In this document: positions 781-48,507 of the stretch, in pieces
Layout: every line of letters begins with the position of its first letter
Numbering within the stretch: position 1 is the first letter of the stretch
Virus record (IMG/VR): IMGVR_UViG_3300008255_000012
Span: 1-59,629 of that record
DNA length: 59,629 nt
Direction: 5' to 3' (one strand)
DNA from: a virus
Taxonomy: Duplodnaviria; Caudoviricetes
Notes under the pieces: model-generated
Database searches by the model: none
Seen by the model: only the letters and a program-made list of their open reading frames with translations
Told to the model about the DNA's origin: nothing
Program-made: the position numbers and the translations under genes

Positions 781-1419
781 CTATTTTTTATTAGTCGGTG
801 TCATTCCAGCATCAGCTTGAGACTTCGCCCCAAGCAATGCATTGAACATTTGAAAATGAGTTTGAGCCTTGGCCTGCTCGCTATATTCAAAGTCCTTTGA
901 GTGAGCCATGTAAAGCATGTACTCGACGACAGCATTAGTGTAAATATCATCTAGATCCGACACGCCGCTATCATAGTCACCTACGAGGTGACGAGTTGGC
1001 ACAGCAGAATAAATAAGATCAACCGTTACCCCTAATGCTACGCCAGGGTATAAGAAAAATCGCTTAGGTTGCCTCTCGTCATAAATAAAGCTTTCTGGAT
1101 CTTGCTCGCCGGTAGTGCCGTACCATTCTGGATATAAGTCGTTCAACTCATCCCTAGATCTGTATGTGATAGCTGAACCTGATTGATTGCTTCTTATATC
1201 GATAACTCTGAGCCCTTCATCTGGCAGCGTTTGCTTTGTGCCAGCTACACATGGAAATGCAGCTTCAACAATATTCGCATCAGGCCTAAGCAATACAACT
1301 GCCCGCTGAGCATCGTTGAACATTGACATTAAATTTTCTTTGGGCCAACGAGTAAAGCCATCATCCATAAGCTGGCTGTTAACTTTGTCTATGATCGTTT
1401 TAATTAAATCTTTAGCCAT
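781..1419 (-). CDS. Head-tail adaptor/virion protein (DUF6682-like)
   Basis: RWPKENL..NDAQRAVVLLRPDA..GTKQTLP motifs; between capsid and tail fibre genes. Confidence 0.6.
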   Translation of the reverse strand: MAKDLIKTIIDKVNSQLMDDGFTRWPKENLMSMFNDAQRAVVLLRPDANIVEAAFPCVAGTKQTLPDEGLRVIDIRSNQSGSAITYRSRDELNDLYPEWYGTTGEQDPESFIYDERQPKRFFLYPGVALGVTVDLIYSAVPTRHLVGDYDSGVSDLDDIYTNAVVEYMLYMAHSKDFEYSEQAKAQTHFQMFNALLGAKSQADAGMTPTNKK

Positions 1420-11828: not shown

Positions 11829-11854
11829 GATCACCTCTGTATATCAATGTGATC

Positions 11855-11883
11855 AGTATATAGAAAGGATTGTTTTGTATCTA
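11855..11883 (-). promoter_or_regulatory. Putative terS/late promoter
   Basis: TAGATA-N17-TATACT, with 19-bp motif at 11889-11907 just upstream. Confidence 0.45.
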
Positions 11884-11918
11884 GTTTGTAGGGGATTAAT
11901 AAGGTATGGCTGTATAGC

Positions 11919-11942
11919 AAAAGCCCTCAGGCGAGGGCTTTT
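11919..11942. terminator. Bidirectional intrinsic terminator after tRNA
   Basis: AAAAGCCCTC-AGGC-GAGGGCTTTT. Confidence 0.8.
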
Positions 11943-11957
11943 ATCTTTAATGCTAAG

Positions 11958-12034
11958 TGGTGGCCCCTCACGGACTTGAACCGTGGGCCTAACGATTATG
12001 AGTCGTGTGCTCTAACCAACTGAGCTAAGGGGCC
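11958..12034 (-). tRNA. tRNA-Ile2 (CAT anticodon, lysidine type, reads AUA)
   Basis: GGCCCCTTAGCTCAGTTGGTTAGAGC..CTCATAA..GGTTCAAGTCC..GGGGCCACCA; acceptor stem and D arm as in E. coli ileX; encoded CCA. Confidence 0.9.
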
Positions 12035-12043
12035 TTAATATAC

Positions 12044-12162
12044 TGTGATTGCAGGTACTGAACTCCTGCATATAATCCGCTACAAGTCTCAACAGTGCAG
12101 ATTATCGTCATAATTGGTTCTCGGGCTTGTCTAACGTCGTATCAGCCTACGCATTAATCACA
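12044..12162 (-). ncRNA. Candidate cloverleaf-like structured RNA with loop-loop pairing
   Basis: Closing stem TGTGATT/AATCACA; hairpins CGTA-GGCTGA-TACG, ATAATCTGC/GCGGATTAT, TGCAGG-AGTTCAGTA-CCTGCA. Confidence 0.6.
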
Positions 12163-12297
12163 TTGGTCAAGATGACTTGCGAATCAAGTTCTACCGTTCA
12201 CGTTTCGCTTCTTCTATATTGGCTTTGCCTCAAGATTACTCTGGCTAATTCGCACGCTGCATTAATTCTCAAAATCTAACAATCATCTTGCCAATGT
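12160..12297 (-). ncRNA. Candidate long-stem RNA with large internal loops
   Basis: ACATTGG-CAAGATGA / TCATCTTG-A-CCAATGT closing stem; inner TGCGAATTAG/TTGATTCGCA stem; no annotated ORF. Confidence 0.5.
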
Positions 12298-12385
12298 AAT
12301 CACCGCATGTGCGGTCACTTATCAATACAGATGTGCAAAATTGTGGATTAATTGCACTAGCTTTATAACTTTGGTCAGCGAGTTA

Positions 12386-12413
12386 ATAGTACAAGTTTAG
12401 ATTAATTTTGCAA
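12386..12413 (-). promoter_or_regulatory. Promoter for ncRNA/tRNA cluster
   Basis: TTGCAA-N16-TACTAT. Confidence 0.55.
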
Positions 12414-12551
12414 TCCTAATTGCGCTGCTTCTGTTTGTTTATTTAACTGCTTTTTGGCTTGTTCATATTCTTGCATTGACACAGAGCCACTTACAGGGCA
12501 GTGCATTAACGGGCGGGTTACTGGTGCCGAGCTTTGGTTTTTAGCTTTCAT
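12402..12551 (-). CDS. Hypothetical 49-aa protein (MKAKNQSS...)
   Basis: ORF with ACAACAGAGAG leader. Confidence 0.5.
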   Translation of the reverse strand: MKAKNQSSAPVTRPLMHCPVSGSVSMQEYEQAKKQLNKQTEAAQLGLQN

Positions 12552-12580
12552 TTTGGCTTTCTCTCTGTTGTCAGATTTAT

Positions 12581-20469: not shown

Positions 20470-21375
20470 TTAAATCTCCAAGCTTTCATATCCACCGAAA
20501 TCTACTGCTAAGTCTCCCATCAATCCACTAAACTCTTTAGCGCAAAGAATAAAATCAGCATCTAGTCTAGCAGCCACATTATCAGTACCTACTTCATCAT
20601 TACTCGCCATAAACTCCTCAGCAAATTTAATGCGCTTTAGCGAGCCATCTGAACAAGCAATGAATGACATCGACTGTTCGTAGTTAAGCGCCAACTTGTG
20701 CACCTGCTTACCTGTTTCGATATGGGCCAGCACTTCATCTTCTCTAAGGTCTTGGTCTTTGAATCGTGCAATGCCAGTTTCATCACAGCGCAATTCAGCT
20801 TCATGCTGTACCTCAAAAGGTGAAGGCGCTGCGCTCGCTTCAATCCATTTAGTTAAAGTTGATTCAATAGGTGTTTTGTAGCTAAGAGGAATAACTGGCA
20901 AACTTCCTATCGCCTTACGCAGCAACGCAAGCAAATCTTCAGCTTTCGAATAGCTTGAGCTATCAACCAGAATCAATTGCGACTCAGGCATGATTAAGGC
21001 GCGTGTAACTGATTGACGGGTGAATGCGCGTGGCAGCAGATCTTGAATAACTTCATCCTTGAGCGAATCTTTTTCTTTCTTAGCCAGCTTTCTACCTTCT
21101 ACCTGTTCGATTAATTCAACCTTGGCATCTAAAGCCTCTTTAACAACTAACGATGGCAGCATCTTAGCCTCTTTGGTCACTGCTACCATGTGATAACATT
21201 CAGCGCTGTGAACCAGAGTGTTGCCCTGCTTACCTAGTGCGTTTGAAAATCCAAACTTACTAATATCTTGGCTTGAACATGGGCTGAATTTAAAATCTGC
21301 CATTGCAGACTCTAATGCTGCCGCATCAACTTCGAATGGTTTGTTAAATCTGAAAGCTATAATATTTTTAAACAT
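20470..21375 (-). CDS. rdgC: Recombination-associated protein RdgC
   Basis: [53 protein letters not shown]. Confidence 0.95.
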
Positions 21376-36742: not shown

Positions 36743-36846
36743 AAAGACACCGCGATTGCGGTGCCATCATTTATTAATACCCTAGGTACACAAACTTATT
36801 TACAGCTAAATAAGGAACCATATGGTCTTGCTGTGTTACCCCTCCG

Positions 36847-39834: not shown

Positions 39835-42800
39835 TTACTTCACGCTTACCGCTTCGTTGTATGCCTTATTGAATCTAGCAGCCATTAAACGCTTTCTTTC
39901 CTCAATTGCATCTATGCGGGTTTGCTTTTGCTCATCACTGAGCTTGCTCGCATCAATCGCCGCCTTTTGCTTATTCAGCCTAGTAAGCTCTTTCTGAATA
40001 CCCTTTGTCATGGATATCAGCTTAACCTTTGGCCTGTTCTCGGTTATAAACTTTATCCGCTCTTCACCGGGCAACATGGTAGCTTGCTTCTCTACTGTCT
40101 TTATTTCATCGAAGCGTTTATACATTTCTGATATATCGACAGACTCAGAGATTGAGCCCATGTACTTGCGCCAGAATGGGATCTCGCCAGACTCAACGCT
40201 TTCACCTTTAACTGTTTTGACAGCCAAATCTTGCGACCTTCCAAACAAAGAGCCCAGCCCGCCGCCGGCAAACTTAATTAGGTGTTGCCATGACTCAGGC
40301 GCAATATCGACAACGCCTGATTTAAATTGGTTTCCGCCGGTTAAGTCGTTTAGGTACTCGCTTAATCCTTTAGCCCACTCCCATGTTTTACGCTGTGAGT
40401 TGTAAGCATCAGGCGTTTTAAGACCGAAAGGATTTTGCTCTTTGTAGATAGGCGAGCCAGTAAAGTTTTCATTAAGTGCCATTTCTACAAACGGCTTTAA
40501 CACTGCTGGCGCTGCCGTCTTTACAACTTGCGAGGTCATCTGTTCAGAACTAACCGCGCCCAATGGCGAAAACGCACCAGCAAATGCGGCAACAGTATCG
40601 AATGCTGATTCGATGGCGGTTGATTCGGTGTTCATGCTTCTGTCGATGGCATTGCCTATCGATGCAAAGAAGTTGTACCCATAAGGCATTGGTATTTTTA
40701 TGAAGTCGCCTTCACTGCCTGGGATCATTAATACAAAGTTTGTCTCCTTCACATAATCAGGGACCTTATCGTAAAATGGTTTTCCATCGTCATCATCGCC
40801 GCCCCACTCCCTGTTTGCCTGCGCCATTAATATTGTGGCTATTGGCAGGGCCATAGCAATTTTCTGGGTTAGGTTATAGAACTCAGGATCCCAAATCTTT
40901 TTAGTCTTGTCGGCCGGAGTCATTACCGCACGTAACATGTTGGCCGTACCCTGCACGCTGGCATTGAAGAACATGTAAAGCGCGTTAATGCTATTGGTCA
41001 TTTCTCCGCGACGGTTAAAGTTTACTGTCAGGTTTTTAGCGAGTGATGCAGCGGCCTTTTCAGTAAGTCCCAGACGACGGGCATTTGTGTAAACAGATAG
41101 CCTAGAAGAATTTTCGATAACGTCGTTATAGTCGTCGATGAACTTAAGCATCTTGTCTTTGCTGCGGATCAGCTTGTTCTTAGCGCCTTCGCCAGTAGTG
41201 CTTATTGAGCGAGTAATATCATCCTTAATTTCGTCAATATCCTTTTGCACGAACCAGCCTGTTTTGGCTCCTGCGTCCAAATATTCTTTTAGGTATGCTC
41301 CCCACTCTCCAGTGAAATCGTTATCCCTAAACCCGCGCTTTAGCGCTTTCATTGAGCTAGGGATATCCTTAACCATTTCTTTGGCAAGATCCTTAGTTCC
41401 TAACGCCTTACCCCCTTCTATCTTTGACTCTGCCAGCACGTTATAAACTGCGGTTTGCACATCTCGGGCAAAGTTAGATAAAGCAAACTGAGGGTCATAG
41501 CTGGTGATTAGCGCCGATAGTACGCGGGTAACTCGGCCAATAGTCTTAGTTAGAATGTTAGCCTGTTCAACGCCAAGGTTTGCCATAGCCTCCATCAATC
41601 GAGGATCGTGCAACTTAATGTAATACTGCTCTCCGCCCATTTTTGCGCCAAGGTACTTATCCTTCATCGCGTGCATTGGCATTACAGTTTCGATCACTGT
41701 TTCAACTGTCTTGCCAGTAGCGGGATCTTTGCGCTTTGTTATCTTGCGGGTTGTATCAGGATTTTCACTGCTGAACACCTGCCAAAGCTCCGGGTCTGGG
41801 TTCGCATCAACAAGCCTAAGCATTGTCTGAGCTACTTCGTTTTTTCTTGCGCGGATAGCCGACTGAGTAGCATCAGAAATGACATAAGCAAGCGGCGACT
41901 CTGACACTGTGCGTCTGCCCATTGCTCGCATTGTTTCCCTGCCATGTACGCTGAAGCCTTTCCCTGTGGCCTTAACTCTGTTTCCTTCCGTGTCAGACTC
42001 ATTGACAGCAAAACCTTTAAGCGGAACGTAATGCTTATATGCAGAGTCCCACGAATCAACAATATCTTGTGACTCTAAACCTGAGTCAATTAACCTTTGC
42101 TTTGTTGAGTTGATAATGCCATCAACAAACGCAGCCGCCGCCTTAACTTTTGTCATGGTGCCTTCTTTGGTGAAGTTATCCATGATCTTTGCAGCCTCGG
42201 CATCCGTCATGCCAGAACCACCATCCTGTATATCAGGGTTTATTTTGGCAATTTGAGCGTTACGCTCTGGCGCGTGGCGGGCAATCAAGTACAGATCAAG
42301 CTCTTCGCGTGAAACGTTTTCTTTGCCCATGTACTCGACAAGCGGCTTGATGTATTGATCTTCCATTACTCGTAAATCTTCTCCGACCTTGCCGTGGAAT
42401 AATTCCTCTGCAAGATAAACGTCTTTGCTTTCATCAATCATACCGCCCTGCTCTTTAACGGCCTTCTGCGTGACTTTAAGGCGACGGTATTTATCCTGTA
42501 TAGACCTGAGGAAAGCATCCTTCCTAGTTTCGTCTGGAATGCTAAAGCCATCTTTTGCGGTTAACTGATTACTGAACTTTATATCGTTCTTTATTTCAGA
42601 GCGGCCGGCGCTGACAGTTTTTATCCTTTCCCCGATGATGCGGATCATATCCTTAATCTCGGTTGCCGTTATTTTGTCGCCAACAAATCCAACTTTTCTT
42701 AGGGCCCGAGTAATTGCGGCAATAATTCTATTGCCCCACTCTCCAAGCTTGCTAGGTTCCAACTCTGCGATACTGGCGATCACTTCCTCGGCCTTTGCAT

Positions 42801-45800
42801 TCTCATCAAATCCTTCATATCTTTCATCGATATCAGACCAAATTGACTCAAGGCTTTTAGCGTTACGGCTGGCAGACACTAGGTTGACAACGTTACGCCA
42901 TTCGTCTTGGCCGACCACCCGCATAAGCCCGTGGTGAGCTAACACTTCATGTCGAAGTATCTTGCGCGCATCTGCTGCGCTATCGATGTTATTTGATATC
43001 AATACCACTTCGTTAGTGCGAGGATTGTAAAAAGCATGTCTTAACACGCTCTCATCATCTTGGATGCCAGCGTAATCCATTGCTTCTTTCTGTGTCTGAA
43101 AGACCATTGCCTTGATACCAGCAGCGCCTTTGTACTCTTTGATGAATGATTTTGCGATAACATCAACTTGCTTTGCTGGCATCCCTTTTGGCGTGCCGGC
43201 AACTATTGAGTCACTGCTAAATTTAATTATTTCACTTGATGGCTCTTTAGATACTGAATCGCTAACCTCTTCAGGCTTTTCAACTAATATGGTCTTGGTC
43301 CTTACCGCAGTTGGGTTAAGTGACTCCAAGAATGCATTTTCAGGTAATAACTCTTCTTGCCCATCCAGTGATGAAACCCATTCTTTAAACGCTTTATTTT
43401 TATTATTTGAACGGTCACCGGCCATGCTGCTAACAATGGCAACTAACTTACCGCCAGCCTTTAGCATGTCGTAAGCGTGGTATACGTGATCGATATCCTG
43501 GTCATTAGAGAAAGGCGGGTTCATTACTATTCGGTCATAAACAGGGCCAGATTTAAACTCCATAAAATCATCACCGACCAGGTTGTATCCCTTCTCCTGA
43601 AGGATAGCCCTTAGGTCGCCTGCCATTTCAACAACATCAATGTCAGCGCCGAACTTATTCATAGCATCGGCAAGCTCGCCGTTTCCAGCCGACGGTTCTA
43701 AAACCTTCATGCCTTCACCAATTCCGGCCAACGATACAACGTCGTCAGATATTGTCTTTGGAGTGGGGAAAAAGTCATTGAAAGCATTTCTGTTCAAGCG
43801 CATTTTTCGCTTAAGCTCTCTCTCCATTACTTCAACAGTGGTTTTTTGCTTTGGTGCATCGATAGATGACTTAATGCTATTTAACTCGATCAGCGCGGTT
43901 CTTAACGCTGCTGGCGTGTCGATACCCATTCTTGTTAGGCGCGAGTATTCAGCGGCAAGCTCTGTGCCGTTGTAATAGTTAGGCTGGTCTTTGAGGAAAT
44001 CTAACAGCTTATTAAAGTATGGCTTAGAAGGATCTAATGTTGCATAGTCTCGCTGCCCAAGTCCCGCTATTGTTTTTTTCAGCGATGCTGCGGCCTGCTT
44101 ATATCCGCTCATATTATCCATTTCGCTTGACCATCTTTCTATTGCTGAATAATGGCTATCAATCATAGGGAATCGTGAAAACTGTACTCGGTCCTCAATG
44201 CTTACGCTGCTTTTCCATGAAAGGTTTGAATTTCTATCACGATCCATTAACTCGTCAATTTTTGACTGAGGAACGTTATATCTCAAACCATTCATTTTTT
44301 TATCTAGCGTTTCTAGCTGCGCTTTGCTGCTTAGTTCTGCTAGATATTTTATTTCTCCCGACTCGATGCCATTAGCTACGGCCCTTAGCATTTTGGCAAA
44401 TGACGCATCAGAATCGGCTTTAGCTCTTGAAGAGTCAGCCATTCGCATTTGCCTTGCTGTGTTTTCTCTGCGAGTAGAGGAAAGATCTTCATTAGCTTTC
44501 TGCTCTAACTTTTCAGCCATAGATATAAGCTTGGTAACTTTTACCTTTTGCTTTACCTCTTCACCTTTAGTTAATTGCTCAGTTCTATCTATGTCGCCGC
44601 CCTTTATCCACGATGTAAACTCGTCGGCAGACTTTTGATCAGGAAGATAGAAATTGCCACGCCAATAACCTCCGCCCATGGATCGCGCTTGTGCTGCTGC
44701 TTGCTTAAATTGATCAGCGCCTAATCGTCCAAGCTTGACATTGATTATTGGCTCACCTGTTTTCCCATGTGTTCCAGTCGATGTTTCAACAACTTCAACA
44801 TCAGCGCCTAGCCCTTTTTTTACGGCCTTAGCCATTTTGCTTTCTACTCGCTTAGATAATCCCGCCTCAGTTAAAAGTGCTTCATATCTAACTTTTTGCT
44901 CAGTTGTAAGTTTGTCCTCACCTCTTAGGTTTACAAATTGCTTGAACTCATCAAGTGTTTCAGGGTTTTTAACAGACTTAACCATGCCTTCAAACTTGGT
45001 TTTATATTCACCACGTTTTTTAGCTAGATCTTCTTTGTATGCTTCTATCGATTCTGGTGTGATTTTTTTAGCCGATTCTATAACAGCATTTTCATAAGCA
45101 TTTTTGCCCATGCCATAAGATAGCGTTTCAGCAATGTGGAAACGTGATAAAAGTTGTTGATAATAATAACTTACAGCAACATCTTTCTTTTCAGATTTTG
45201 CTCTTGCTGCTGCCATTGGCCCAAGTTTTTCCAGTAGCTTAGGCTTGGTGTATGCCTTTGATATTTCAGACATTAAACGTTCTTTGTCTGCTGAAAGTTG
45301 TTCCGCGCCAGCAACATATTCACTAGGGGTAAGATCCCCTTCGATAGCTTTTTTACTTAAGCTATCCCAATCAGCATGGGACTTGTTTTTAAATTCAATT
45401 GGCTCGACTTCTGCTGCTGGCAATTCCTTAACAGCTTCAGGCTTTGTTTCTTCTGCTGTTTTTTTATCTGAGGCTTTTGCTGCATCAATTTCTAAGCTTA
45501 CTTTTTTGGCCGCATCCTCAAACATTTTCATGCCAATGAAATTATCAGACCGCTCTTTGTCTGCCAGCTCTGAATATGTTTTCCCCCCTGCCATTCCTGC
45601 CCATATTCTTCCTGCAATATCGCGAGCCTTTTTTGCGGCCATACTTCCGCCAAGCTCTTGCAATGCTAAGCTTCCCATTCCTTCTCTAATTCGAGATATA
45701 TCATCAAAACTATATTCTTGTGATGACTTCGCCTCAGCTTCAGGCATTGGAGCTGTAACCGCTTCAGCTTCCGATTCCGCTTCTGCTGGCTTTTCCGTTT

Positions 45801-48507
45801 TTACTTCTAGCTCTGCTGCTGCTTCTGCTGCTGGCGCTCCTTCGCTCGTTGTAGTCCGCTCTGTAGCGACTCTTTCAACTGGCTGCGCGGTTGGCTTACT
45901 AACTGCTTGAATAGCTGGCTTTGCTTCTGCATAGGTACGCTCTCTTTTGTTTGAAATATCTGAAAGTTTGGTTAGAAGATTTGGCAGTGATGTTTTACCG
46001 CTCTCATAAAGATCGATGGCTTCTGAGGTGGCATTAAAATCTATGTCGCCGGCAGTAGCTACGAGCTCGTCAAGGATTACTTGCTCTTCGCTGTAATGCT
46101 CAGGCTTTTCAGAAAGCATTTTGTTATAGCTTTCAATGTCGGCAATATGTGACTTGTTGCCTGTAGCGTCAGCCATTAGTGTATTGAACGATTCAATGCG
46201 CTTGGCTTCTCGCTCTGCCCGTCGCGCATCAAGCACTTGTTTTGCTTGTCCTGCTCCTTCGCTTCGCATTGCCGCGACTGCATCAAGCATATCTTCCATA
46301 ACTTCAGCTTGTCGTTTGCCTAGTCGCTCGCCTGCCAATGATCGCTTAATAGTTGAGTTAAGCTTATCAGCTCCGCCTAGCGCTTTTGCCCATGACCTAA
46401 CCATTTGCGCGTCAGCGGTTAGCATCTTAGGATCAACTTGTGTTGAGTAATGGCTTTCAGTGTTATTTACTTCGCCGTAAAGCATATCAACGACATCATT
46501 ACTATCTAGCGTGTCGCCTTGGCGGTTTCGGTAGCCCAACTCGTTTAGCTTTTCCGCTGCATCATCAAAGGTCATCTTCCCAGGTGTAGAGAATGTTTTA
46601 CTACCTTTAAACATCGCTGGATCAAATCCCTCTGCTTCGGCAGTGGTTCGGCCTATGCCACCCATCTTCCCGATAACTTCGGCCATGGTATCCGTTTTTG
46701 GTTCTGGCGCTGTCGATTTAGATAACTGTTCTGATAAACCGCCAAAGTCTGTAATCGCATTGCGATAGCCTTTGTTTAAAAGCTTGATGGCATTTGGCTT
46801 GCCTTTTAGCCCAGCAGGGATCGCGGCATCCTTAACCTTTTCGATATAATCGCGTTCAGCCTGTTTTCTGTATTCAAGTTCAAACGGCGACGGGCCAGCT
46901 TCTGTTGGCGCCTTAATTAAAAGCTCGTCAACAGTTGGCGAGGTTGGCATTGATAGCCGTTCTTGTACTGGACCTTTGCCAGCCTCAGTTTGTTGTTTTG
47001 CATACTCGGCGCTTTGCTGTGCAAGTCGGCGCTCAAGATTTGCGCGGCGCTCTGCTACTGTCGGCGCGGCGCGGCCTTCTGCAAATTCATCTTTCTGGAT
47101 CTTGGCCTGTTCCTTTGCCTGTGCGATTAACTCTATTGGCGTCGGTGCAGTTTCTCCTTTAGCTAATGCCTCCTGTACTTCGCCAGTGCCAGCCAAAACC
47201 TTTTCTTGTCGAGCTTGTTCTTGCTGTGCCGCTAGCTTTTCCTCAAGCGCTGCACGGCGCTCTGCCACTGTAGGCGCTGGCTCAGTCGCTAATGGTGCCT
47301 GCTCTTTTCCGGATACTTTTTCAACGGTTCCAACTGTGCCGCCAACTGTGCCTCCTAGTGCTCCACCTAATAACCAGCCCTCTGCCGCAGCACGCACAAC
47401 GCCTTTCATCGGGTCAATATCTTGCCCAGCAACATCGATAAGAATTAAATTCTGTGCGTATTGTTCCGCCGCACTCTGCGCCGCCTCTGTCGGGGCCTCT
47501 GCCGCAAAGCCAGTTACAGCTTTATTAATAATCCCGCCACCCATCTTCCCGGCGATCATGCGGCCAAGTGTGGCGTCACCAATAAAAGAAGCCAAAGCGT
47601 TAACAGTCAGCAACTTGGGATCTTGCATAATCTTCGATGAAGCATGTTCAGCGGTAAGTGTTCTAGCTAGATTTAGTTTTTGCTGATCACTCATTGATTC
47701 ATTAGCTGGATCAGCGTCGACGGCTTTAAAGTTATTTACAAAGACCTCTGACTTTTGAAGGTCTGCCCATGGCAATGATTCAATAGCTTCTCGAGCCTGA
47801 ACTCCCGCGCCACCGGTTGCTGTTGATGTTGCTAATGCGGCAGTTGGTATTGATACTGCTGCGTTAGCTATTTTATTTGCAGCAACTTTCGCACCTGCAT
47901 CTGTAAGACCTTTTGCTACCCCAGCTTTGTAAGCTGTTTCATATACAGGTGCATATAGCCTTTTTCCTGTCATACCACCAAGCACTAAATCTGGTATCAT
48001 TTGAGAAATTATTTTTGTTGCTTTTATAGTCCATGATGACAACTGTTTTGCATTGTCAGTAAATTCAAGATTTTCATTTATAAACTCTTTTTCCAATTTA
48101 GCTTGAGCTGATTCGCTCATGCTTTTTTCAATTGACGTTTTAAAATCTGCTATTGATTCCTTTGCTCCTAATTGCTTTTCGCTTACAAACTTCCTAACCT
48201 CTGGGACAAGATCTAAAGTACCCAATGTTGGGTGCTCAGTTAAAAATAAGTTGTCGAGCCTTAAAATCTCCGCTTTTGATTGAATGTTTTCAATGACGCC
48301 GGCAGCAGAAGCTTTTACATAGTCAGTGATCCCAGGTGAATCGGATTGTTTATCTAGTGAAGATAAGTCTTGCTTCGCTGGCGTAGATGCTTCTTGCAAT
48401 TGCAGTTGCGGTTTATCTCGTTCTTGCTCTTGATCAATGGTTAATGCAGGCTCTTTGCCTTCTCGCATTTGGCTAAACTGATTTTCCCAGAATATTTTCC
48501 CGGCCAT
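39835..48507 (-). CDS. Giant internal virion/ejection polyvalent protein: N6-adenine MTase, HExxH domain, C-terminal LPD38-like domain
   Basis: FFPTP/VLEPSAGNG/NPPF (~43280-43790); LRHEVLAHHG (~42940); NLTVNFNRRG, LYMFFNASVQG, IKIPMPYG, NENFTGSPIY. Confidence 0.85.
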   Translation of the reverse strand: MAGKIFWENQFSQMREGKEPALTIDQEQERDKPQLQLQEASTPAKQDLSSLDKQSDSPGITDYVKASAAGVIENIQSKAEILRLDNLFLTEHPTLGTLDLVPEVRKFVSEKQLGAKESIADFKTSIEKSMSESAQAKLEKEFINENLEFTDNAKQLSSWTIKATKIISQMIPDLVLGGMTGKRLYAPVYETAYKAGVAKGLTDAGAKVAANKIANAAVSIPTAALATSTATGGAGVQAREAIESLPWADLQKSEVFVNNFKAVDADPANESMSDQQKLNLARTLTAEHASSKIMQDPKLLTVNALASFIGDATLGRMIAGKMGGGIINKAVTGFAAEAPTEAAQSAAEQYAQNLILIDVAGQDIDPMKGVVRAAAEGWLLGGALGGTVGGTVGTVEKVSGKEQAPLATEPAPTVAERRAALEEKLAAQQEQARQEKVLAGTGEVQEALAKGETAPTPIELIAQAKEQAKIQKDEFAEGRAAPTVAERRANLERRLAQQSAEYAKQQTEAGKGPVQERLSMPTSPTVDELLIKAPTEAGPSPFELEYRKQAERDYIEKVKDAAIPAGLKGKPNAIKLLNKGYRNAITDFGGLSEQLSKSTAPEPKTDTMAEVIGKMGGIGRTTAEAEGFDPAMFKGSKTFSTPGKMTFDDAAEKLNELGYRNRQGDTLDSNDVVDMLYGEVNNTESHYSTQVDPKMLTADAQMVRSWAKALGGADKLNSTIKRSLAGERLGKRQAEVMEDMLDAVAAMRSEGAGQAKQVLDARRAEREAKRIESFNTLMADATGNKSHIADIESYNKMLSEKPEHYSEEQVILDELVATAGDIDFNATSEAIDLYESGKTSLPNLLTKLSDISNKRERTYAEAKPAIQAVSKPTAQPVERVATERTTTSEGAPAAEAAAELEVKTEKPAEAESEAEAVTAPMPEAEAKSSQEYSFDDISRIREGMGSLALQELGGSMAAKKARDIAGRIWAGMAGGKTYSELADKERSDNFIGMKMFEDAAKKVSLEIDAAKASDKKTAEETKPEAVKELPAAEVEPIEFKNKSHADWDSLSKKAIEGDLTPSEYVAGAEQLSADKERLMSEISKAYTKPKLLEKLGPMAAARAKSEKKDVAVSYYYQQLLSRFHIAETLSYGMGKNAYENAVIESAKKITPESIEAYKEDLAKKRGEYKTKFEGMVKSVKNPETLDEFKQFVNLRGEDKLTTEQKVRYEALLTEAGLSKRVESKMAKAVKKGLGADVEVVETSTGTHGKTGEPIINVKLGRLGADQFKQAAAQARSMGGGYWRGNFYLPDQKSADEFTSWIKGGDIDRTEQLTKGEEVKQKVKVTKLISMAEKLEQKANEDLSSTRRENTARQMRMADSSRAKADSDASFAKMLRAVANGIESGEIKYLAELSSKAQLETLDKKMNGLRYNVPQSKIDELMDRDRNSNLSWKSSVSIEDRVQFSRFPMIDSHYSAIERWSSEMDNMSGYKQAAASLKKTIAGLGQRDYATLDPSKPYFNKLLDFLKDQPNYYNGTELAAEYSRLTRMGIDTPAALRTALIELNSIKSSIDAPKQKTTVEVMERELKRKMRLNRNAFNDFFPTPKTISDDVVSLAGIGEGMKVLEPSAGNGELADAMNKFGADIDVVEMAGDLRAILQEKGYNLVGDDFMEFKSGPVYDRIVMNPPFSNDQDIDHVYHAYDMLKAGGKLVAIVSSMAGDRSNNKNKAFKEWVSSLDGQEELLPENAFLESLNPTAVRTKTILVEKPEEVSDSVSKEPSSEIIKFSSDSIVAGTPKGMPAKQVDVIAKSFIKEYKGAAGIKAMVFQTQKEAMDYAGIQDDESVLRHAFYNPRTNEVVLISNNIDSAADARKILRHEVLAHHGLMRVVGQDEWRNVVNLVSASRNAKSLESIWSDIDERYEGFDENAKAEEVIASIAELEPSKLGEWGNRIIAAITRALRKVGFVGDKITATEIKDMIRIIGERIKTVSAGRSEIKNDIKFSNQLTAKDGFSIPDETRKDAFLRSIQDKYRRLKVTQKAVKEQGGMIDESKDVYLAEELFHGKVGEDLRVMEDQYIKPLVEYMGKENVSREELDLYLIARHAPERNAQIAKINPDIQDGGSGMTDAEAAKIMDNFTKEGTMTKVKAAAAFVDGIINSTKQRLIDSGLESQDIVDSWDSAYKHYVPLKGFAVNESDTEGNRVKATGKGFSVHGRETMRAMGRRTVSESPLAYVISDATQSAIRARKNEVAQTMLRLVDANPDPELWQVFSSENPDTTRKITKRKDPATGKTVETVIETVMPMHAMKDKYLGAKMGGEQYYIKLHDPRLMEAMANLGVEQANILTKTIGRVTRVLSALITSYDPQFALSNFARDVQTAVYNVLAESKIEGGKALGTKDLAKEMVKDIPSSMKALKRGFRDNDFTGEWGAYLKEYLDAGAKTGWFVQKDIDEIKDDITRSISTTGEGAKNKLIRSKDKMLKFIDDYNDVIENSSRLSVYTNARRLGLTEKAAASLAKNLTVNFNRRGEMTNSINALYMFFNASVQGTANMLRAVMTPADKTKKIWDPEFYNLTQKIAMALPIATILMAQANREWGGDDDDGKPFYDKVPDYVKETNFVLMIPGSEGDFIKIPMPYGYNFFASIGNAIDRSMNTESTAIESAFDTVAAFAGAFSPLGAVSSEQMTSQVVKTAAPAVLKPFVEMALNENFTGSPIYKEQNPFGLKTPDAYNSQRKTWEWAKGLSEYLNDLTGGNQFKSGVVDIAPESWQHLIKFAGGGLGSLFGRSQDLAVKTVKGESVESGEIPFWRKYMGSISESVDISEMYKRFDEIKTVEKQATMLPGEERIKFITENRPKVKLISMTKGIQKELTRLNKQKAAIDASKLSDEQKQTRIDAIEERKRLMAARFNKAYNEAVSVK

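Follow-up and report, generated by a model that had tools for sequence, protein, structure and literature searches.

We read the 119-nt segment at positions 12044-12162 (minus strand), with moderate confidence, as the promoter-distal third of a ~340-nt leader in a dedicated promoter-leader-tRNA-terminator unit, carried by a phage whose DNA occurs in aquifer metagenomes. The conserved part of this leader is probably a processing or stability module. The original prediction had interpreted the same segment as a tRNA-like RNA with kissing loops; as interpreted that finding is not supported, and what it touches is a real leader module. Phage tRNA genes are generally regarded as mere cargo. A few aquifer phages place before their tRNA genes a long leader, marked by a helix with covariation support and by a 24-mer conserved without exception. 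Should this leader govern processing, or act as a regulator in its own right, the phage delivery of rare-codon tRNAs would gain a further layer, and the leader would also be a compact new RNA motif to test.

Genomic setting and the tRNA unit

The window, that is, the whole stretch of DNA analysed, comprises the entire virus record of 59,629 bases (59.6 kb), has terminal repeats and represents a complete phage. Its closest isolated relatives by TerL are Vibrio phages of 58-61 kb (66% identity). In minus-strand order, small early-type genes run from ~24 kb down to ~12.44 kb, and a non-coding stretch (12440 to 12035) separates them from a tRNA gene; the segment at 12044-12162 is the tRNA-adjoining part of that stretch. 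The tRNA unit lies between a leftward early operon and the terS late operon, with a promoter-like site between the terminator of the tRNA unit and terS. DnaB, NinG and others were placed elsewhere in the record by Pfam. Elsewhere too are a 2890-aa ORF (39835-48507, minus strand), to which Pfam assigns a single domain, LPD38, known from large polyvalent proteins, and an SU10-type adaptor (781-1434). The features on which the analysis rests are as follows, in minus-strand order.

20470-21375: RdgC, within the run of early-type genes (Pfam scan of ORFs)
12383-12413, minus strand: candidate sigma70-type promoter TTGCAA-19-TATTAA, read by eye
12302-12315, minus strand: P0, a hairpin (ACCGC-ACAT-GCGGT) that abuts P1 and is conserved across units
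12280-12301, minus strand: 5' arm of the P1 helix, which pairs with 12178-12156
12179-12279, minus strand: apical region enclosed by P1, variable between aligned units in length (~52-106 nt) and sequence
12154-12177, minus strand: invariant 24-nt strand AGTCATCTTGACCAATGTGATTAA, identical in 5/5 copies
12156-12162, minus strand: S2 (TGTGATT), described originally as the 5' strand of an acceptor stem, which pairs with the P1 5' arm or with S3
12051-12155, minus strand: lineage-specific 105-nt spacer with local hairpins at 12151-12138 and 12070-12050 (fold and comparison)
12044-12050, minus strand: S3 (AATCACA), a conserved island complementary to S2 (cross-copy comparison)
12035-12043, minus strand: 9-nt unpaired leader directly 5' of the tRNA (sequence and fold)
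11958-12034, minus strand: tRNA with CAT anticodon, Ile2-like, CCA encoded (ARAGORN; Rfam tRNA model, 69.9 bits)
11919-11942, minus strand: terminator-like hairpin of 10 bp and a T run that closes the tRNA unit (terminator scan)
11834-11022, minus strand: terS, after the promoter-like site and followed by terL and portal

The tRNA at 11958-12034 is the only one in the genome (ARAGORN, and Rfam at gathering score). It is 81.5% identical to an E. coli-type CAT tRNA in another locus (L286), beside a uracil-glycosylase gene, and this 'tRNA-Met' (CAT) has its acceptor and anticodon stems in common with that tRNA, which we take to be of the lysidine-modified Ile2 type that reads AUA. The tRNA of the window thus looks like an Ile2 type. 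ATA makes up 155 of the 523 Ile codons (30%) in 12 long phage ORFs. Related loci add a tRNA-Arg(TCT), echoing the ileZ-argN-argO array of phage 933W.

A promoter, a ~340-nt leader, the tRNA and a terminator make the simplest reading of the unit. The promoter scan did not call TTGCAA-19-TATTAA because its spacer is 19 nt long. The site aligns, however, with a scan-called TTGTAA-17-TATATT (1532-1560; 9/12) in the related locus L003, and the leader that follows the L003 site is homologous to that of the window. A strong TTGACA-16-TATACT (11/12) lies ~100 nt 5' of P0 in a further relative, L005, and candidate promoters are found 65-100 nt 5' of the module in L005 and L003. No tRNA-proximal promoter was seen in the window, by scan or by eye; in 933W (the annotated pT), K64-1 and the E. 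coli-type CAT locus the promoter ends 9-10 nt before the tRNA. The scan printed the terminator at 11919-11942 on the plus strand, and its minus-strand reading (the hairpin, then TTTTGC) was made by eye. A terminator follows the tRNA(s) in the window, L003 and L005. Transcription of the leader itself has one hint: in a metatranscriptome run a single 151-nt contig (depth 2.7) matches 12096-12246 with zero differences, the sole phage-specific RNA-library contig within 11000-13200 (2.2 kb) among the pieces listed. As evidence of expression it is weak, and DNA carry-over is possible. Other listed pieces from the same run fall on the tRNA with 3-6 differences each and are therefore probably from other organisms.

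Three related loci were recovered by a TerS search (L002, L003 and L004). L003 and L004 (90% TerS identity) carry a longer version of the non-coding stretch, followed by tRNA(CAT) and tRNA-Arg(TCT). L002, with a 99% identical TerS, has neither the tRNA nor the non-coding stretch and carries two ORFs instead; the unit is therefore dispensable cargo. A packaging site was considered for the module and rejected on the same comparison, as L002 lacks the module. The interval from the early left operon to terS is a cargo hot spot (11835-12580 in the window, 2385-3000 in L002 and 1150-3000 in L003), occupied by one module and 1 tRNA in the window, by three modules, 2 tRNAs and 2 small ORFs in L003 and by two ORFs and no RNA genes in L002; TerS identity across these contexts is 90-99%. 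In all three terS contexts an inverted repeat, GATCAC...GTGATC, covers the ribosome-binding site and start codon of terS (~11830-11862, minus strand, in the window; 2960-3008 in L002; 2970-3008 in L003) and may form a translational hairpin. L002 also has TGTGATC/GATCACA flanking a TATAAT-like box.

The P0-P1 leader module and its relatives

Five copies of the module were found, spread over four kinds of contig; L003 has in addition a diverged third unit (unit C). An exact 21-mer search added two contexts to those found through TerS: L005, where three tRNAs follow the module, and L007, where an ORF begins ~220 nt after it and there is no tRNA. The three units of L003 stand in tandem, the last ending 2 nt before the tRNA. 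An ~85-aa ORF sits inside the 5' arm region of the L007 module (~885-1210, minus strand) with ATTATAT at both junctions, and looks like an insertion with a 7-nt target duplication. The module is single-copy in the window, where a 19-mer of the invariant strand, allowed up to 3 mismatches (<=3), found no second site on either strand.

Wider searches returned little else. Against 1062 phage records there was no match outside the tRNA among the 30 matches listed, and IMG/VR, metagenome contigs and species genomes gave no further true match to the module; a coding-region match to Bartonella in genome contigs was dismissed as chance, as was one other match in coding sequence. A 20-mer search of metagenomes found 17 loci, one of them real (L073, the same contig as L003), and the other 16 (within L069-L085) belong to an unrelated repeated coding element. 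Because the 20-mer recurs by chance in 16 contigs, exact-word matches to the motif need their context checked. A pattern search yielded at least 119 matches, with L005 the only real one among the matches listed. A profile search of 288 loci (2.48 Mb) placed the module in the known contigs only, L074 and L109 being rejected as chance matches. Among 80 loci of TerL relatives, some with short upstream flanks, two have the module (L207 and L208), both of the L003-type contig. Scanned against Rfam at E<=1, L003, L005 and L007 matched tRNAs and antisense look-alikes only. The module is a rare, narrowly distributed RNA motif, undescribed in a literature search aimed at comparators rather than at the motif itself.

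Covariation and strand-specific G.U pairs support the predicted P1 helix, which makes up, with P0, a candidate new family. The 3' arm of P1 (12178-12156) contains one bulged A, and TGTGATT is among the last bases of the 24-mer. Across six units, the 22 pairs of P1 are paired in 97.7% of cells, and 5 of them have changed on both sides. P0 has 6 pairs, 2 with changes on both sides, and in L003 unit C its loop has changed and its stem has re-paired. Taken together, P0 and P1 are paired in 96.3% of 161 cells, with 7 pairs changed on both sides; the sample is 6 units from 4 contig types, L003B and L005 being almost duplicates and unit C of L003 supplying most of the double changes. None of 500 column shuffles reached any of five measures for P0 plus P1, and partners slid out of register paired in 25-46% of cells. 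RNAalifold predicts both helices from the six-unit alignment, and P1 is present in the minimum free energy (MFE) structure of 6/6 units. Strand preference points the same way: ~16 G.U cells in P0 and P1 pair on the tRNA-sense strand only, and the 296-nt leader folds with a z-score of -2.36 in the sense orientation (4 of 200 shuffles as good) and of -0.95 in the antisense. A P0-like hairpin at 36745-36762 proved to be an ordinary terminator.

Just 5' of the P1 3' arm in L003B (L003 1965-1972), and at the same spot in L005, stands CGCTCTTA, a string that presumably corresponds to boxA of the lambda nut sites. Unit C of L003 has an altered version, and the window lacks it.

Folds of the 119-nt segment

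The two ends of the segment are conserved and its interior is not. TGTGATT at 12162-12156 and AATCACA at 12050-12044 were both found on the minus strand as originally quoted. AATCACA lies downstream of TGTGATT in 5/5 module copies, at a per-copy chance of 0.9-2.1%, and the sequence between them is unrelated from copy to copy (105 nt in the window; 75, 25, 66 and 31 nt in relatives). The closing repeat is therefore real and conserved, and the arms and kissing loops drawn inside it are private. The 105-nt insert of the window has no match among ~205 loci or elsewhere in the window. Between L003B and L005, identity is 98-100% as far as the motif end and 33-43% beyond, with S3 kept in both. The S2:S3 stem would be 7 bp long in the window and 9, 9, 12 and 9 bp in the relatives. 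The 7-nt core of S2 and of S3 is invariant in 5/5 copies and, since the repeat never varies, it offers no informative changes for covariation.

Base-pairing probabilities, computed with 190 nt of upstream sequence included, give S2 the following partners.

Window: upstream (P1) 0.88; with AATCACA 0.003
L003A: upstream (P1) 0.91; with AATCACA 0.001
L003B: upstream (P1) 0.69; with AATCACA 0.29
L005: upstream (P1) 0.98; with AATCACA 0.000
L007: upstream (P1) 0.96; with AATCACA 0.02

S2 is thus predicted by the folding model to be held in the much stronger upstream helix P1 rather than in S2:S3. The closing stem appears in 5/5 copies only when the segment is folded in isolation, so that the cloverleaf-like picture depends on the cut points chosen originally. 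A broader wording of the prediction, a scaffold displaying variable middle arms, is partly supported: as description it is true, for a conserved inverted repeat does surround a hypervariable middle, but the stem that would hold the scaffold together has a probability of 0.003 in context (0.000-0.29 elsewhere).

The individual hairpins are present in the letters. A D-arm-like hairpin (CGTA-GGCTGA-TACG) exists at 12151-12138 and a T-arm-like hairpin (TGCAGG-AGTTCAGTA-CCTGCA) at 12070-12050, both on the minus strand. The MFE structure of the 119 nt contains the closing stem and both hairpins, with one middle arm where two had been described. Its energy is -29.0 kcal/mol against -24.6 +/- 3.0 for shuffles (z -1.44; 16 of 200 shuffles as good), and the other strand gives a z-score of -0.82. 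The complementarity reported between the loops also exists, as 5 nt including one G.U (that is, 4 Watson-Crick pairs), but at about chance level: random loops of equal sizes and composition reach it in 6.4% and 6.0% of 100,000 trials. Loop-loop covariation had been proposed as a check, and the hairpins are missing from 4/4 of the other copies. The best reading of the kissing loops and of the D- and T-like arms is that they are incidental folds of a non-conserved spacer.

Membership in the tRNA family was judged by a covariance-model score of at least 29 bits or an ARAGORN call, using Rfam 15 (4227 models). The only gathering-score match in the window is the tRNA at 11958-12034, and neither ARAGORN nor Rfam, even at E<=10, placed a tRNA match in 12044-12162. 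When 901 nt around the segment were compared with Rfam at E<=10, the only overlapping hits were to snoRNA models (E=1 and 8.9), far below cut-offs. CCA and an anticodon arm are absent from the segment, as the original prediction had itself said, and with respect to the tRNA model (RF00005) the T-like loop has 9 nt, not 7. It is consequently most improbable that the 119 nt form an independent tRNA-like RNA with D- and T-like kissing loops, mimicking tRNA or serving as a decoy for tRNA-targeting enzymes. Such an RNA would fit the isolated MFE structure, the T-like hairpin that abuts the 3' strand of the stem in tRNA fashion and the real tRNA alongside. Weighing on the other side are the unremarkable fold z-score, the missing model match, loop complementarity that chance produces about 6% of the time, arms private to one phage within an orphan spacer that is replaced by unrelated inserts elsewhere, the want of a CCA end, and an acceptor 5' strand that is held upstream in context. 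The reading as an anticodon-nuclease decoy or tRNA mimic does not hold up.

Other origins for the segment were tried and set aside. A decayed tRNA had been suggested by the extension of a blast match with Klebsiella phage K64-1 into the T-like hairpin, which turned out to be a 9-mer within a promoter spacer. The suggested likeness to lambdoid elements was followed to phage 933W, whose tRNA leader shows no comparable element and has a proximal promoter instead. A leader peptide (ATG CGT AGG CTG ATA CGA CGT TAG, 12154-12131, minus strand), with rare codons next to the tRNA, lacks a ribosome-binding site, and only 2/5 copies have its ATG. This seven-codon frame (M R R L I R R stop) places AGG, ATA and CGA beside an AUA-reading tRNA, probably by chance.

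Competing explanations and known systems

In the explanation that we favor, a leader with a processing or stability module, the functional core would lie upstream of the 119-nt segment, in P0 stacked on the 22-bp P1, and the segment itself would consist of three parts: S2, the lineage-specific 105-nt spacer and S3, the last ending 9 nt before the tRNA. P1 would form first during transcription and could act as a double-stranded processing or stability element, an RNase III-type substrate to judge from its length; with 22 bp and one bulged A, it reaches the approximately two turns of double-stranded RNA of an RNase III site, cleavage being inferred only. P1 would then separate or stabilize the leader as the tRNA is freed by RNase P. 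S3 may be held in reserve as a partner for S2: after cleavage of P1, or opening of its base, S2:S3 could close the spacer into a 5'-terminal stem and cap the new 5' end. Two observations stand against parts of this scheme. The L007 module precedes an ORF, not a tRNA, contrary to a tRNA leader, and the 24-mer is perfectly invariant while its partner arm drifts, contrary to a processing stem. The invariance, which a plain processing stem does not explain, points to an extra sequence-specific role; it is the main unexplained point and so keeps alive three rivals, a small RNA, a switch and a DNA-level element.

The leader, or the piece closed by P1, could be a stable phage small RNA with the 24-mer as its working surface (a seed or protein-binding strand), perhaps a regulator or sponge that originated as a tRNA spacer and is freed by RNase P. 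Such a regulator, which we consider unlikely though worth keeping in view, would account for 24 nt that are identical in 5/5 copies while the partner arm, apical region and flanks drift; units arranged in tandem like tRNA genes, three of them in L003, and paired termini that would protect the RNA also suit it, as does the position on the leader region of the only phage-specific RNA-library contig in the 2.2 kb. No target was found, however, the 19-mer search having given no second site in the window, and the fold prediction hides the 24-mer inside P1; the apical regions lack conservation, and expression rests on one low-depth contig. The 24-mer could instead alternate between partners, the base of P1 (S1:S2) and S2:S3 being two states of a switch that makes the presentation of the pre-tRNA 5' end, its maturation or the decay of the leader responsive to a signal. 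Three conserved, mutually exclusive segments, an S3 that mimics the 5' arm and stands as a conserved island amid unrelated sequence 9 nt from the tRNA of the window, and an S2:S3 stem of 7-12 bp that attains a probability of 0.29 in L003B are what a switch would need. Yet P1 wins widely in 4/5 copies, unit C of L003 is without S3, the gap between S3 and the following gene ranges from 9 to ~220 nt, and no ligand pocket or conserved junction is evident, so a switch seems to us quite doubtful. We attach a similarly low likelihood to a broader reading as a new class of phage RNA device, in which the invariant 24-nt strand has two alternative partners (S1 or S3) and an exchangeable 25-105-nt cassette, and which would work as a switch gating the maturation of rare-codon tRNAs supplied by the phage or as a leader-derived regulator with a lineage-specific variable domain.

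A role at the level of DNA would make the RNA folds by-products: the TTGACC-containing 24-mer would serve as promoter or operator, or S2 and S3 would be recombination junctions for cargo in a mobile regulatory cassette. The abrupt fall of L003B/L005 identity from 98-100% to random exactly at the motif end, the varied cargo after the module (1, 2 or 3 tRNAs, or an ORF), the ORF inserted in the L007 5' arm with its 7-nt duplication and the hypervariable region upstream of terS are all in keeping with it. A protein site in DNA does not predict, on the other hand, that the arms of P1 co-vary and tolerate G.U on one strand only. Furthermore, inspection of the five copies by eye showed no -10 element at constant spacing from TTGACC, 70 ORFs compared with Pfam gave no integrase or recombinase match, and there is one copy per genome, unlike the PeSL cassettes of other phages. 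Half-sites for a DNA-binding protein were also sought: the 9-mer AATGTGATT, with up to one mismatch (<=1), shows no enrichment (25 sites in the genome, 23.3 expected). Apparent resemblances to global-regulator and replication-initiator boxes were set aside, the spacing being wrong. On balance a DNA-level function is very unlikely, and we return to the leader with its processing or stability module for comparison with known systems.

Structured non-coding RNAs are known to lie beside phage tRNA genes. Stable RNAs of unknown function sit in the tRNA cluster of phage T4, and GOLLD and ROOL are large ornate phage RNAs that are often beside tRNA genes. The module resembles them in being structured, non-coding and placed beside phage tRNA genes in the same orientation, its units standing in tandem with tRNAs; it is, however, much smaller than GOLLD and ROOL, and it has no similarity to these RNAs in sequence or by model, the GOLLD and ROOL models of Rfam giving no match. 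Among tRNA mimics are bacterial Y-RNA-like RNAs and viral tRNA-like ends. The 119-nt segment is like tRNAs and tRNA-like RNAs in its 7-bp closing stem, in the hairpin abutting the 3' strand of that stem and in the tRNA beside it, but differs from them in having no model match, no CCA or anticodon arm, a 9-nt T-like loop, unconserved arms and a stem that P1 out-competes. In integron attC sites a variable centre is bracketed by inverted core sites, and an integrase lies close by. An attC-like site was rejected here (judged against the core-site consensus), as extended AAC/GTT ends occur in L005 only and no integrase was found among the 70 ORFs scanned.

PeSL cassettes, described for T4-type phages as a sigma70 promoter with a short terminator stem-loop in many copies per genome (PMC4122927), offer a closer likeness at the DNA level. 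Like these mobile regulatory cassettes (PMC4122927; see also PMC2839356), the module is a conserved non-coding motif that borders variable cargo in a hyperplastic region, and its TTGACC resembles a -35 element. It differs in having one locus per genome, no fixed -10 and a long-range covarying helix. A PeSL cassette was rejected for the module, which is single-copy in the window and has no fixed-spacing -10 after TTGACC in 5 copies (by eye).

The helix itself invites comparison with RNase III substrates, the long leader-trailer or processing helices of rRNA operons and of the intergenic sites of T7 and lambda (see also PMC11404451), which share with P1 a length of ~22 bp, assembly from distant segments, covariation and an adjoining stable RNA. 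P1 instead encloses a variable 52-106 nt and not the stable RNA itself, one of its strands is invariant, and its cleavage is inferred. The 5' leaders and external transcribed spacers of bacterial and phage tRNA operons are non-coding; they are co-transcribed with the tRNA, RNase P removes them, and they can persist separately. In these respects the module is like them. Regulatory RNAs can derive from such spacers, as with the 3' spacer of an E. coli tRNA operon, which sponges small RNAs. At ~340 nt, highly structured and with an invariant 24-mer, the module stands apart from ordinary tRNA-operon leaders; pT-ileZ of 933W, K64-1 and the E. coli-type CAT tRNA, with their proximal promoters, have hardly any leader. 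By analogy, then, the closest functional counterpart of the module would be a tRNA-operon leader joined to a processing helix such as those flanking rRNAs.
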